From assembly GCA_900546635.1 (NCBI GenBank), contig URDS01000001.1:13306-77305 (forward strand): a stretch of 64,000 nucleotides of DNA, read 5' to 3'. Each line of letters starts with the position of its first letter. The stretch's first letter is position 1. Of this stretch, positions 30,002-64,000 are shown piece after piece. Made by a program: the position numbers and the translations under genes. The DNA is from an uncultured Eubacteriales bacterium. Its GTDB lineage: Bacteria; Bacillota; Clostridia; Oscillospirales; CAG-272. The notes beneath the pieces are model-generated. The model was not told the DNA's origin, did not search any database, and was given only the letters and a program-made list of their open reading frames with translations.

Positions 30002-31213
30002 TCAATGCGCGCGCTTGTCTTCGTTTTCTTTTTTCCCGCAAAGATACAGGCGGCGCTCTCCGGTCAGCCGGCCGCAAAGCGTTTCAAAATCTGCTTTCGC
30101 CGCTTCGGCGTCAGGCGAGTCGGGCTTGAAGAGAGGCTTCTTGACTGCGCGGAGCAGGATATTTTTCGGCGTGTCCTCTGGGTCGGTAAACTCGATTGCC
30201 TCGGCTGTATAACCTCCGGCTTCAAGCCGCATCAGGCGGAGCGCGTCGGTGAGCGCGTCGCAGAGCTTCTTTTTCAGAATCGGATAGCGGGTGATGAACG
30301 AAAATTCATCGGTCGTCAGATTGGCGAGAAGCTCATGCTGGCAGCAGGGGGTGGAAAGAATGACGGCGGCTCCAAGTTCCATCGCTTTTGAAAGGACAAT
30401 GTCGGTTGCAATGTCGCAGGCATGCAGGGACAGCACGAGATCGACGGGCGTTTCATACGGAAAGCTGTCAATGTCCGCGGCAAAAAAATGCAGATCGTTA
30501 AATTCAAGCTTTTTTGCTGTTTCCGAACAGAAAGCAATGACATCTTCTTTGCGGTCGATCCCGATCATTTTTACCGTGCGTCCCATAACGGTATGCAGAT
30601 AGTGATAGGCCGCGAAGCTGAGATAGCTTTTTCCGCAGCAGAGGTCAAGCACGTGCAGATCCCCTTTTTGCGGCAGCGCATGGTATATGTCTGCGATCTG
30701 CTCCGCAAAGCGGTGGATTTGACGGAACTTTGCGTGCTTTTTATCATAAATTCGTCCGGAAGCATCGGAGATGCCGAGCGCGCGCAAAAACGGTTCGTCG
30801 CCGCGCAGAAGATACTGCTTTTCACGGTCGTGCGCCGAAAGCTGCGTACCGCCGTTATACGCTTTGGCCGCGGATAAAAACTTTTTTTCTCCGAGAATCG
30901 TTTCACGGCCGTTTTTCGATTTTTTGTATTCGGCGTCCGCATTTTCTCCGATCAGATTGATCTGTGAAAAGGGGGCGGCAGCCCCGGCGATTTCCTCCGC
31001 CGCGCTTACAGGAAAATTCTTGTGCGTGGCTTTGCCGTCCCGCATCTGATATTCAAGCTGCAAAAAGATCTGATTTTCTTTTTGAAAGAGTCGTCCGGTT
31101 GCGCGCAGAACATCCGTTTTTTCGCATTTGGAAAACACGGCCTTTTTTAAAAAGCCGTGTTCTGCCGCGAGCGAAAGCAGCGCGCATAAATTGAAAAGCG
31201 TATCGGTAGGCAT
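30002..31213 (-). CDS. class I SAM-dependent methyltransferase (Methyltransf_32-like)
   Basis: 403 aa with VLDLCCGKSYLSF (SAM motif I) and the LHACDIATD motif. Start overlaps the plsY stop. Confidence 0.7.
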   Translation of the reverse strand: MPTDTLFNLCALLSLAAEHGFLKKAVFSKCEKTDVLRATGRLFQKENQIFLQLEYQMRDGKATHKNFPVSAAEEIAGAAAPFSQINLIGENADAEYKKSKNGRETILGEKKFLSAAKAYNGGTQLSAHDREKQYLLRGDEPFLRALGISDASGRIYDKKHAKFRQIHRFAEQIADIYHALPQKGDLHVLDLCCGKSYLSFAAYHYLHTVMGRTVKMIGIDRKEDVIAFCSETAKKLEFNDLHFFAADIDSFPYETPVDLVLSLHACDIATDIVLSKAMELGAAVILSTPCCQHELLANLTTDEFSFITRYPILKKKLCDALTDALRLMRLEAGGYTAEAIEFTDPEDTPKNILLRAVKKPLFKPDSPDAEAAKADFETLCGRLTGERRLYLCGKKENEDKRAH

Positions 31214-31917
31214 TATTTTTTGTCTCCGTTTGTGGGATTGTTCTTCTTTTTGGAAAAGGAAATCTTATTTTCGGTATGGTTTAATAGACGTTTTATGTTG
31301 TCGCGATGCATAAAAATAACGAGCGCCGCTACCATAAAGCTGATCAAAACAGGGAACCCGTGATAGCCCCAGGAAGCAAGTTTATAGGTCAGAATCGGAT
31401 ACAGCATCATGCAAATAATAGAGCCGAGCGAAACGTACTTTGTGCCGGCGACCAAAATGACAAACATAATGAGCAAAATGAGGAAACAAAGCGGATCCAG
31501 CGTCAGGATCATCGCGGCGGTGGTGGCCACGCCCTTGCCGCCTTTGAATTTGAAAAATACAGGGAAAATATGACCCATAATACAGAACAGCCCGGCGATA
31601 TATCCGCCGTTTATTCCGTAAATGAACGCGCCGAAGAATACCGAGGCGGTTGCTTTCAGCATGTCGCAGAGCAGCGTTGCCGCCGCAGCGGTTTTTCCGT
31701 ATGTGCGCAGCATGTTCGTCATGCCGGCATTGCCGCTTCCATGCTTGCGAACATCATCACGGTAAAAACATCTGGAAATGACCAGCGCAAAATTAACGCT
31801 CCCAAGCAGGTAGGGGAGTGCGATGCAAAGCAGTACGCAGATTGCCGTCAGGGCGGTCTGCGCGCCGGCGCTTTCCGCTTTGTCGATTAAAATTTGATAG
31901 AGAGTTGGATTAAACAT
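31213..31917 (-). CDS. plsY: glycerol-3-phosphate acyltransferase PlsY
   Basis: 234 aa multi-TM with the GSGNAGMTN motif. Confidence 0.9.
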   Translation of the reverse strand: MFNPTLYQILIDKAESAGAQTALTAICVLLCIALPYLLGSVNFALVISRCFYRDDVRKHGSGNAGMTNMLRTYGKTAAAATLLCDMLKATASVFFGAFIYGINGGYIAGLFCIMGHIFPVFFKFKGGKGVATTAAMILTLDPLCFLILLIMFVILVAGTKYVSLGSIICMMLYPILTYKLASWGYHGFPVLISFMVAALVIFMHRDNIKRLLNHTENKISFSKKKNNPTNGDKK

Positions 31918-31924
31918 GTCTGCC

Positions 31925-32152
31925 TCATTTTTTGAAAAGTTTATGCAGGCGACTTTGCAGTTCCGCTTTCACCTGCGCTGTTTTATCGCCGAGAATTTCC
32001 ACGGCGATGATTTTGCCGTCCTTGCCGATGGTCGCCAAGATGATGTCGCCGTCCCGCAGTTCTTTTGGTTCTTTTGCAAATCGGTATTCCCGCCCTGTGT
32101 CCGAGTAGGCGACGGCAATTTCGTTTTCTATGCGATCAACCCGCAACTCCAT
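31925..32152 (-). CDS. DUF3006 domain-containing protein
   Basis: Small protein starting MELRVDRIENEIAVAY... The listed ORF starts 5 codons earlier. Confidence 0.6.
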   Translation of the reverse strand: MELRVDRIENEIAVAYSDTGREYRFAKEPKELRDGDIILATIGKDGKIIAVEILGDKTAQVKAELQSRLHKLFKK

Positions 32153-32477
32153 GTTTGTTTCACACATACTATGCTCCGGATTTTGCGTCTGCGCCGGAAA
32201 TCCGGTCAGACGGTATCATTCTCCGGTTATTATAGCACAAAGTTTTGCAAAAGGAAAGAGAAGAGAAAAAATTATATCGCAGAGCGCGGCGGATGTTTCT
32301 GCTGATCCTTGATATAAAGAGAAAAATGACATTTGCTCCCTAACGTCAAGAGGGGATTTCGCTTTATAGAGATCATAGAGATCGACAAATCAAAATAATG
32401 ACAATCGCTGTAAAGCGAAAGCGTTTCGCGAAATTCACCAAAAGGCGCTTACCGCTCCCTGCCGGCCAACTTACAAG

Positions 32478-32942
32478 CTATATCTGCCGTATACAGGCGT
32501 TTACATAATCAAGCGGCACATCCATGCGTCTGGCGGTTTGTTCCGCCGTCATTCCGCTATCCAAAAATCGCCTGCAAACCGATTTCATGTTCTCTCCGAC
32601 TTCAATAATATGCCGATCCGGGTCATAAAAGCGAATTACACGTTGTCCCCAACTGTGTTCTTTGACGGGATGAACAGATTTAACGGCACAATCATGCAGC
32701 TTTTTTGCAAAGGCGTCAAAGTCGTCCTCTTCAAAATATATCTCGAAGTTGTTGCCGCCGAAAGAAATATCTTCTGTTCCGATAAACGCCTTGTACGTTT
32801 CTAAAGTCTGTAAAGCAAGTCCGCCCGTCAACGTTTTATTTGCTCCAAAATCCAAAATCACATCAAGGCCAAGAATTTCTTTATAAAACTTGAGTGACTT
32901 TTCCATATCGCGTACAACCAGCATGGAAGATAACAACTTCAT
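32478..32942 (-). CDS. VOC family (glyoxalase/bleomycin-resistance fold) protein
   Basis: 154 aa starting MLVVRDMEKSLKFYKEILGLDV, RBS GAGG. Confidence 0.75.
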   Translation of the reverse strand: MKLLSSMLVVRDMEKSLKFYKEILGLDVILDFGANKTLTGGLALQTLETYKAFIGTEDISFGGNNFEIYFEEDDFDAFAKKLHDCAVKSVHPVKEHSWGQRVIRFYDPDRHIIEVGENMKSVCRRFLDSGMTAEQTARRMDVPLDYVNACIRQI

Positions 32943-32952
32943 ACTTTTTACC

Positions 32953-33285
32953 TCATACCCCTAAATTTTTACGCGCTTCCGGATCGTTCTCCATAACCGC
33001 AGCGACCGCCGCGCATTGAGAAACTTCTGGACAATCGCCACAGGTTGTCACACCCTTTTTCAAAGCGCATCGGCGAATCTCGCAAAGACGATCGCAAAAC
33101 ACGGTTTTCATTCCATCCGCTCGACAACCCTCACAGTTGATATGTTCAGGTAAAATAGGCGCATGGTTGAGCGCAGCCCACAGTTTTGCAGTTTTCACAC
33201 GCAAAGCATGGTCATTATGGATTGTTGCAAGGTAAGCATCACACTGTTCACAGTTCAGACCGCAATACCCGATCCTGTCTTTCAT
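32953..33285 (-). CDS. DUF3795 domain-containing Cys-rich protein
   Basis: 110 aa with YCGLNCEQC...CEGCR...CALKKGVTTCGDC cysteine pattern. RBS GGAGG. Confidence 0.7.
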   Translation of the reverse strand: MKDRIGYCGLNCEQCDAYLATIHNDHALRVKTAKLWAALNHAPILPEHINCEGCRADGMKTVFCDRLCEIRRCALKKGVTTCGDCPEVSQCAAVAAVMENDPEARKNLGV

Positions 33286-33320
33286 TGTTATGTACCTCCA
33301 GAGGCGTATTTGATGTTTTC

Positions 33321-33349
33321 ATTTTACCATACTGCCGCCACCGATTCAA
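33321..33349 (-). promoter_or_regulatory. promoter for DUF3795-VOC genes
   Basis: Minus strand reads TTGAAT-N17-TAAAAT with a TG extension. Confidence 0.5.
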
Positions 33350-33477
33350 TCCGTATCGCGATTTCTCTTTTTCTCGGAACACATATTTTTTATGGTTCAA
33401 CCCTGTTTTCGAATATCAAAGCCTAAGGCTGTCATCTGTGTTCAGAAGTTTCAACGAAAACGCATGGGACTTGAGGG

Positions 33478-33709
33478 AAAAAAGAGGCCTCTCCTCGTGT
33501 TACCGGGGCAGAGGCCTCTGCAACTTGTCGATTAAGATAAAAATTGCATATGAAATTGGTTTACAAGACGGACATGTGCCGTCATGTAAACACCTTACAG
33601 GCGCGCGAGTGCCGCCAATGGCGGCGCGACGGCGCGAGCGAACGCGCCCTATCGTCGAAAAACCTTGGTTTTCCGACGGTCAGAGAGGCCTCTATTCGCT
33701 TTTCCGAAT
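33478..33709 (-). ncRNA. candidate structured RNA, unclassified, with own intrinsic terminator
   Basis: Three copies of the self-complementary AGAGGCCTCT (33684-33693, 33510-33519, 33483-33492). Copies 2 and 3 form a 10-bp hairpin followed by U6. GC-rich hairpins lie at 33653-33678, 33631-33648, 33611-33625 and 33558-33594. A weak TTATTG-N17-TATAAA promoter sits at 33716-33744 (minus strand). Confidence 0.35.
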
Positions 33710-33725
33710 AAAAATTTTATAGGAA

Positions 33726-33754
33726 TTGACTTTTGCCGCAATAATTGGTACAAT
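33726..33754 (+). promoter_or_regulatory. promoter for ligA
   Basis: TTGACT-N17-TACAAT with a TG extension. Confidence 0.55.
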
Positions 33755-33795
33755 AATATGTTAGTAAATACCAGGCTGCGGAGGCGTTAGATTGA

Positions 33796-35784
<1,989 letters not shown>

Positions 35785-62892: not shown

Positions 62893-64000
62893 TGAATGCT
62901 TTAGGACTTCGTGTCCGCCGTCTTTTTTCAACGCAGTATATGGTAAAAGAAAATGAACGGCTTGGAGAATTACCGCCCAGCAGAGAGGCGTATTTGACGT
63001 TTTCATCGCTCGCTTGGCCTGCAATGATCGAATCTATGTTTGTCGTCATGGCGGGATTTATCGATACAATTATGGTCAGCGGCGCCAGTGATACGGCGAT
63101 TGCGGCTGTGGGAATTACAACGCAGCCGAGAATGTTGTTTTATGTTCTGTTTTTTGCTATGAGTTCGGCTACCGTCGCTTTGGTCAGCCGCCGCTTCGGC
63201 GAGAATGATCGTGAGGGGGCAAATCGATGCATTGCGCAGACGTTCAGTATCAGTATTTGGCTTGTTGTGTTTTCACTTGTTACGGCGTTTCTCACAGCCG
63301 AGCCGCTTTTGCGGTTCGCCGGCGCGAAAGCGGATACGATGCCGGAGGCGCTTGTATATTTCAAGATTACGATCGTCGGATTGATGATTCACAGCCTCGG
63401 TATTGTGCTGAACTCCGGTCAGCGCGGAGTGGGCAAGACCCGTATCACCATGCGGTCTTCGATGACCGGAAATCTGATAAATATTGTTTTTAATTATTTT
63501 TTAATCAACGGTATTTGGATTTTTCCCGAGATGGGCGTAAAAGGCGCGGCAATCGCAACGCTGATCGGGCATATTTGCTCTTTTTTGGTTTCACTGAGTT
63601 CGTTTTTTATAAAAGATTCTTATTTGAAACTGCATGTAAAATATTTTCTCCGGTATGAAAAAAGCACTTTGCAGGCGCTTTTTCGTGTCGGCAGCGGCGC
63701 CGGAGTCGAGCAGCTTTTTGTGCGTGTCGGTATGTTTATGTTTGCAAAGGTCGTGGCTGAACTCGGCACAGACGCAATGACCACGCATCAGATTTGTATG
63801 AATATTATCAATCTGTCTTTCGCTTGCGGAGACGGACTCGGCGTCGCCGCAACGGCGATGGTCGGTCAGAATTTGGGACGCGGCCGTCCGGATGTTTCCC
63901 TGATGTACGGCAAGGTTGCCCAGCGTATTGCATGGGGATTTTCGTCCGTGCTGTTTATATTCTTCTGCACCTGCGGCCGGTTCCTGATAGCGCTTTTTAC
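62893..64000 (+). CDS. MATE family efflux transporter (3' end beyond window)
   Basis: The frame is open from the ATG at 62893 to the window end and is not in the ORF track because there is no stop. MATE-like TM pattern (LAWPAMIESMF..., GQRGVGKT, GVKGAAIAT). Confidence 0.85.

Follow-up and report, generated by a model that had tools for sequence, protein, structure and literature searches.

A MITE-like element of about 164 bp in a human-gut Oscillospirales bacterium and its probable targeting of terminator hairpins by shape

Introduction

Prokaryotic MITEs are small, non-coding, multi-copy and intergenic elements that vary between strains, carry terminal inverted repeats, have a predicted stable secondary structure and insert into one another; SPRITE carries a terminator-like hairpin of its own (PMC10969869, a 2024 review). 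Hairpins can also be targets. In staphylococci, IS1272 and TnSha1 of the IS1182 family target DNA hairpins whatever their primary sequence, in most cases Rho-independent terminators that lie behind genes (PMC4923244, PMC5678879). Both remove the stem-loop or take its place, and no duplication results (PMC4923244); in the scheme of Wan et al., element ends that attack the 5′ feet of a cruciform would have the whole stem-loop duplicated (PMC5678879, Fig. 13 pathway b). The IS110-family elements ISPpu9 and ISPpu10 are reported to insert into REP or conserved intergenic sequences. A literature search returned the hairpin-targeting IS1272 and no MITE reported to duplicate whole terminators.

In this work, we analyse a 64-kb stretch of DNA (the window) from an uncultured human-gut member of the Eubacteriales/Oscillospirales, a contig of which an identical version is found in sample ERR1305901. 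An earlier note on this DNA had proposed a riboswitch, an attenuator or an sRNA between a DUF3795 gene and ligA, with a MITE-like repeat as the alternative. We find that positions 33520–33683 are in all likelihood a MITE-like element of about 164 bp, whose family inserts at terminator hairpins by shape and duplicates the hairpin on both sides. Compared with described bacterial MITEs, this family differs in that its target is a shape, its apparent duplication spans a terminator and its core is better conserved than its ends. Described MITEs duplicate 2–10 bp (PMC10969869), whereas the family appears to duplicate the whole terminator, and whereas the hairpin of SPRITE is its own, the hairpins that flank the family are target-derived and different from copy to copy.

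The closest precedent is the hairpin-targeting IS1272 of the IS1182 family. Like IS1272 and TnSha1, the family targets hairpins and terminators irrespective of their sequence; unlike these elements, which are 1.9–3 kb long and encode a transposase, it is 164 bp long, non-coding and leaves the entire hairpin duplicated. It also resembles IS1397/ISKpn1 and ISPpu9/ISPpu10, which are reported to insert into extragenic palindromes or hairpins. Palindrome-targeting insertion sequences, however, depend on one particular repeated sequence, which the IS110 family finds by RNA guidance, and produce a very short duplication or none, whereas the targets of the family share only their shape and the flanking duplicates are 22–29 nt long.

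Locus

In the six closest species-level genomes (L001–L006; ligA 73–96% identical), ligA is the immediate, divergent neighbour of the plsY operon, and the segment that corresponds to window positions ~32356–33693 is missing from all six. A 9–10-bp direct repeat, ATT(T)CGCTTT, flanks this segment in the window (32346–32355 and 33694–33702) and is present as a single copy in L001. As the segment is absent in six related species and the repeat is single in L001, the DUF3795 and VOC genes with their upstream region constitute an acquired cassette, inserted between the promoters of the plsY operon and of ligA, which point away from each other. The insertion measures ~1.34 kb, or ~1.16 kb without the mobile element, and ~400 nt of it are upstream sequence. 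The element itself sits between the divergent ligA promoter on one side and the terminator and promoter of the cassette on the other (Table 1). That the two cassette genes have a promoter of their own, as claimed before, is borne out by a promoter-like site that is identical in the window and in L089, L090 and L075.

Table 1 Features of the locus, with positions in the window.
Feature	Position	Strand	Basis
plsY and DUF3006 gene	31213–32167	minus	
VOC gene	32478–32942	minus	
DUF3795 gene	32953–33285	minus	
DUF3795–VOC promoter-like site, TTGAAT-17-TAAAAT with TG, 9/12 hexamer matches	33349–33321	minus	
Intrinsic-terminator-like hairpin, insertion target	33478–33519	minus	homologous hairpin and T-run in strains without the insert
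Terminator U-run, UUUUU	33482–33478	minus	
Terminator 3′ arm, 10-mer copy 3	33483–33492	minus	
Terminator loop, 17 nt	33493–33509	minus	
Terminator 5′ arm, 10-mer copy 2	33510–33519	minus	
Mobile element body, ~164 nt (boundary ambiguous by 1–2 nt)	33520–33683	minus	absent in L075, L076 and L090
3′ terminus TTAATCGACAAGTTGC, degenerate form of the family 3′ inverted repeat TTTTTTGACAGACTGA	33520–33535	minus	alignment
Hairpin H4, 13 bp with one mismatch; family consensus GTTTACAAGGCGG/CCGCCTTGTAAAC	33559–33591	minus	
GC-rich core	33599–33649	minus	RNAalifold consensus
Core outer helix, enclosing GCCGCC/GGCGGC	33599–33606 with 33642–33649	minus	
GCCGCC/GGCGGC hairpin	33611–33625	minus	
GGCGCG/CGCGCC hairpin, alternative pairing of these core bases	33631–33648	minus	
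Hairpin H1, 11 bp, 5′ end of the element	33653–33678	minus	fold and consensus
5′ terminal inverted repeat TCTGACCGTCGGAAAA, doubling as 5′ arm of H1	33669–33684	minus	
10-mer copy 1, upstream remnant of the target-site duplication, equal in sequence to the target terminator's 5′ arm	33684–33693	minus	
ligA promoter	33726–33754	plus	
ligA	33796–35784	plus	

Three 10-mers and one terminator

The 10-mer AGAGGCCTCT occurs exactly three times in the 64 kb, as the earlier note had it (expected number 0.01; three copies reached in 0 of 100 shuffles). Copies 2 and 3 pair on the minus strand in a perfect 10-bp stem that, with its 17-nt loop and five U, makes up the terminator that had been predicted there; a simple terminator scan missed this hairpin because its loop limit is 8 nt. 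Since the stem is its own reverse complement, its arms double as 10-bp direct repeats, 27 bp apart. The three 10-mers are the two arms of one terminator and a remnant of the target duplication, and not inverted ends of the element.

The surrounding sequence is strongly structured. A 251-nt stretch folds far better than its shuffles (z = −6.5 for the minus and −7.4 for the plus strand), and all four of the strong local hairpins reported earlier are present, with GGCGCG/CGCGCC as an alternative pairing in the consensus. A P1-like helix between copies 1 and 2, which had been proposed to close around these hairpins, is conceivable on paper but unused in the minimum-free-energy fold; in the close strain L089, copy 1 reads AGAGGCCGCT, a T-to-G change that introduces one mismatch and would make the helix weaker.

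In agreement with the earlier statement that the region fits no Rfam class, a search of positions 33000–34000 at permissive E-values gave only noise (best scores 12.7–17.1 bits against gathering thresholds of 35–71, E 2.9–8). Five of the six reading frames of the element are interrupted by stop codons, and its six-frame translation had no match at E ≤ 10 among ~15 billion proteins. The one frame open throughout, on the plus strand, is part of a 178-codon open reading frame (33186–33722) antisense to DUF3795 that is spurious, because no similar protein exists in the collection, and that might mislead gene callers. An integron attC site was also considered and rejected: the R′′/R′ core sites (RYYYAAC ... 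GTTRRRY) are lacking, and no GTTRRRY core was seen by eye on either strand.

Presence and absence between close strains

At this same locus, the insert is present in the window, in L073 and in L089 (GCA_964324025.1), and absent from L075, L076 and L090, which lack exactly positions 33520–33683 between copies 1 and 2; empty sites were observed at the window locus only. There, a single terminator hairpin with its T-run replaces the arrangement of copy 1, insert and copy 2, and its 5′ arm in L075 and L090 is one diverged copy of the 10-mer, ATAGGACTCT. The DUF3795 promoter and all sequence downstream of it are conserved in the window, L089, L090 and L075. The polarity of the difference (insertion, or deletion between 10-bp repeats) is unrooted because the outgroups are without the whole cassette. 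Within the insert, the substitutions between the window and L089 fall in one loop and in the AT-rich tail, and H4 of L089 has a 9-nt tandem duplication.

These comparisons bear on the reading of the region as a cis-regulatory leader of DUF3795–VOC, that is, a riboswitch or attenuator in which copies 1 and 3 compete for copy 2 and copy 1 acts as the antiterminator. Like riboswitch and attenuator leaders, the window region has mutually exclusive helices that include a terminator stem: three identical self-complementary 10-mers permit such pairings, the region is highly structured and the terminator lies upstream of the two genes on their strand. The conserved promoter, however, lies downstream of the terminator, so that the element is outside the 5′ UTR of the operon, and no sigma-70-like promoter was found upstream of the element on the minus strand. 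L075, L076 and L090 retain the operon, its promoter and the terminator without the structured part. DUF3795–VOC pairs at other loci (L077–L088) share no upstream sequence with the window, their similarity setting in only 15 nt upstream of the start codon, or at the start codon, with no conserved leader, whereas the same element follows unrelated genes in other organisms. To this add the mismatch of copy 1 in L089 and the equal folding of both strands. Unlike riboswitch leaders, then, the element is upstream of the promoter, dispensable in sister strains and dispersed beside unrelated genes. We rejected the riboswitch or attenuator class on position (not in a 5′ UTR) and on upstream conservation (absent in L075, L076, L090 and L077–L088), and consider a leader function extremely improbable. 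When a mobile element duplicates a hairpin, apparent terminator and antiterminator alternatives arise automatically; our reading does away with a false riboswitch or sRNA candidate and makes the origin of such candidates apparent. Most likely, the element in the window is a neutral passenger with no regulatory role.

A dispersed family

We scanned metagenomes with a pattern made of the stems of the two central GC hairpins, leaving the loops free. Of the 37 loci found, 21 were chance matches in high-GC DNA and the other 16, all from the set OLGD01, carry copies of the element that are 86–92% identical to window positions 33520–33688. An initial scan for the exact H1 hairpin had found nothing in the metagenomes, in hindsight because H1 varies between copies. 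With diverged copies included by a profile search, the 16 loci hold at least 25 copies, aligned over ~145–170 nt, with up to five or six on one 12-kb contig. Several contigs end inside a copy, as expected of a repeat that breaks assemblies.

The window and the OLGD01 loci share nothing besides the element. Local GC content at these loci is 40–59%, and Pfam searches of ten open reading frames on one contig (L127) identified GerA, RlmL and a GDSL lipase, and no transposase; this contig is an ordinary piece of chromosome from a spore-forming Firmicute. When the OLGD01 loci were compared all-against-all by BLAST, the element was the sole repeat, and no long repeat was present. The family is known from the window species and this one metagenome set: the profile search yielded no second copy in the window or in ~700 kb of related genomes, nor did BLAST with the intergenic sequence against the window, blastn of 33470–33710 against plasmids and phages gave no match, and two pattern scans of viral contigs returned nothing.

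Strain polymorphism and dispersed copies together demonstrate that the family is mobile. The earlier note had itself named many dispersed genomic copies as the sign of a mobile repeat instead of an RNA, and its MITE alternative stands in this respect; the ends it had assigned do not, the true ones being at 33520 and 33683/4, with TCTGACCGTCGGAAAA at the 5′ end.

Insertion sites

In 12 of the 15 complete OLGD01 copies, direct duplicates abut the element on both sides with a gap of 0–3 nt. These duplicates are 22–29 nt long, 78–100% identical to each other and different for every copy, and every one of them forms a stable hairpin (ΔG −10.5 to −21 kcal/mol) that is followed by T-rich sequence in 11 of 12 cases and preceded by A-rich sequence in 9 of 12, as in a bidirectional intrinsic terminator. 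The copies lie 28–90 nt after the ends of co-directional open reading frames, 34–109 nt before the ends of convergent ones, or both, which are the positions of terminators, and show no bias in orientation relative to the flanking frames. The family combines inverted repeats with hairpin-spanning flanking duplications at terminator positions.

On this sequence evidence, each pair of flanking hairpins is a putative target-site duplication spanning the whole hairpin. The duplicate takes in the first 2–4 T of the T-run, and the downstream copy therefore keeps a full terminator. In the window the duplication is 10 nt only, as opposed to the whole hairpin in other family members. Direct repeats of 0–60 bp are recorded for the IS1182 family in ISfinder.

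Small and non-coding, with dispersed copies, terminal inverted repeats, a target duplication and insertion polymorphism, the family has most features of a MITE, even if its 22–29-nt duplication is far beyond the usual 2–10 bp. Neither a transposase nor an autonomous partner insertion sequence with matching ends was found in the OLGD01 loci examined, each a short piece of its contig. In L109, two end-motif matches separated by 2.2 kb were tried as an autonomous partner and rejected, as they lie inside sporulation, polymerase and deaminase genes.

GC-rich hairpins whose structure is conserved on both strands, compensatory changes in the terminal hairpin H1 and extragenic, terminator-proximal positions would also suit a palindromic element that is REP/BIME-like or derived from IS200/IS605, which a tyrosine HUH transposase would move as single-stranded DNA, and not a MITE of the DDE type. 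HUH enzymes place their elements beside a fixed motif of 4–5 nt and do not duplicate the target. The family, in contrast, has duplications of 22–29 nt and varied sequence together with terminal inverted repeats, its unit is one 164-nt element and not a set of 20–40-nt palindromic units, and no such transposase gene was seen nearby in the OLGD01 loci. We rejected an IS200/IS605-type identity on the ends, the long and variable duplications and the 164-nt unit, and regard this origin as very unlikely.

Shape-directed insertion of a MITE-like element, our preferred reading, could proceed as follows. A putative transposase acting in trans would attach the 3′ ends of the element at both feet of a cruciform or hairpin that has been extruded, and repair would then leave the whole stem-loop and the first 2–4 T on both sides. 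Pathway b has this outcome predicted, not observed, for IS1272, and the family appears to fit exactly that outcome. In the window, the element would have landed in the terminator hairpin upstream of the DUF3795 promoter, and copy 1 would be what is left of a full upstream duplicate that collapsed to one arm, or else only 10 bp were duplicated; because the arms are direct repeats, such a collapse could easily have occurred.

Read in this way, the family documents target choice by DNA shape and lends sequence-level support to the model of cruciform-foot attack by hairpin-targeting insertion sequences. Its 22–29-bp duplication would preserve a working downstream terminator, a landing strategy that should minimise harm to the host, and the elements could serve as markers of strain variation in gut Clostridia.

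Elements are also found in pairs. In L095, two of them lie tail-to-tail around one hairpin, of which there are three copies, and in L094 a tandem pair sits within one duplicated hairpin. At one copy (L127b) the hairpins are unmatched, and two other copies have diverged 3′ ends; exchange between copies is a possible source of both. The hairpin duplicates flanking L109 1181–1342 and those of L106 differ mainly in the loop. The L109 loops seem partly reverse-complementary (TTTT versus CAAAAT), as might happen if the hairpin flipped over while the element was inserted or the site repaired.

Family anatomy and conservation

For the family alignment, all copies were oriented as the minus strand of the window. 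The unit is ~164 nt long (161–172 nt among copies) and bounded by the motifs TCWGACCGTCGAAAAA ... TTTTTTGACAGACTGA. It reads 5′-TCTGACCGTCGAAAAAC-CAAG-GTTTTTCGACGA (H1), followed by a GC-rich three-way core, by GTTTACAAGGCGG-CACATGT-CCGCCTTGTAAAC (H4) and by an AT-rich tail that ends in TTTTTTGACAGACTGA-3′. The terminal inverted repeats are 16 nt long and imperfect, with 12 of 16 positions matching between the consensus TCTGACCGTCGAAAAA and the reverse-complemented 3′ end TCAGTCTGTCAAAAAA. In its 3′ tail, the window copy shares 62% identity with the OLGD01 copies.

Contrary to what is typical of MITEs, the core is better conserved than the termini, with mean pairwise identities of 95% in the core, 87% at the 5′ end and 74% in the 3′ tail. 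This pattern would be in keeping with a GC core that is a functional structured RNA (an sRNA, a 3′-UTR stabiliser or a transposition cofactor RNA) riding on a mobile element, and further observations point the same way. Pairing in the consensus structure holds for 98.8% of stem cells. Double-sided changes are seen at three pairs; column shuffles give 1.2 ± 0.8, and three are reached in 21 of 500. H1 pair 7:28 goes from U-A to C-G in two copies, core pair 39:79 from C-G to U-A in two copies, and H4 pair 101:124 is A-U in the window and L089 and G-C in all other copies. In the diverged copy L095x, the H1 changes are compensated at both variable pairs, and the diverged copies L095x, L096x and L093a keep the ends and differ in their internal hairpins. 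Moreover, the upstream hairpin duplicate keeps only 2–4 T, which makes read-through from the upstream gene into the element plausible.

Against this, covariation, proposed earlier as a check, contributes an RNAalifold term of about zero, a value due to most stems never varying. Folding energy shows no strand preference (−59.7 versus −60.7 kcal/mol for the alignment, and on average −68.1 versus −70.2 for single copies), and this, together with the absence of any orientation bias relative to open reading frames, is what is expected of a DNA element and not of a strand-specific RNA; L095 even has copies in opposite orientation at one terminator. No promoter was found inside the element, nor any Rfam match, and hairpin conservation on both strands fits recognition at the DNA level equally well. 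These observations fit hairpins that matter as DNA or in either transcript, and do not fit a strand-specific RNA gene. A functional RNA carried by the element is improbable on this balance.

A stronger version of the preferred reading, that of a MITE-like element inserting at terminator hairpins, would make the family the first natural case in which transposition is guided by structure and a complete intrinsic terminator ends up duplicated, with the conserved and compensated GC core as a functional module. We put this forward tentatively, as a conjecture that we would not expect to hold in full. If it did, the core could be a DNA or RNA structure that recruits a hairpin-targeting transposase or, alternatively, an RNA produced by read-through between the weakened upstream and the intact downstream copies of the terminator.

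Diverged relatives occur in L095 (2364–2559), L096 (7370–7530 and 2513–2623) and L093 (1021–1156); they keep H1 and the 3′ part (CCGCCTTGTAAAC ... ATCGACAAGCTGA) and have other long hairpins in place of the GC core, a pattern suggestive of an older superfamily built of modules. Seven nucleotides from its end, the family's 3′ inverted repeat holds an outward-facing TTGACA, a perfect −35 hexamer, which in the window copy reads TCGACA. A hybrid promoter might in principle form here, although a terminator hairpin comes right after the repeat.

The DUF3795–VOC cassette at other loci

Adjacent DUF3795 and VOC/glyoxalase genes are kept together at several unrelated loci in other Oscillospirales (L077–L088), with 72–77% nucleotide identity to the window and with a phosphofructokinase or an amidohydrolase gene as the upstream neighbour. 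This suggests that the two genes are a functional module that moves between genomes, and the segment in the window suggests a mobile cassette that has no transposase. We found no convincing inverted ends on the cassette; its left end carries a tandem 9-mer, ATAGAGATC x2. The VOC gene has shrunk to a remnant of 52 codons in L075 (950–1108) and L076 and has all of its 154 codons in L089 and L090; one lineage thus shows a decaying cassette. BLAST of the intergenic sequence against the window gave one other hit, 23 nt long (22 of 23 positions), between the ribosome-binding region of DUF3795 (33300–33322) and the 5′ end of an unrelated gene (62984–63006), which is probably due to chance.
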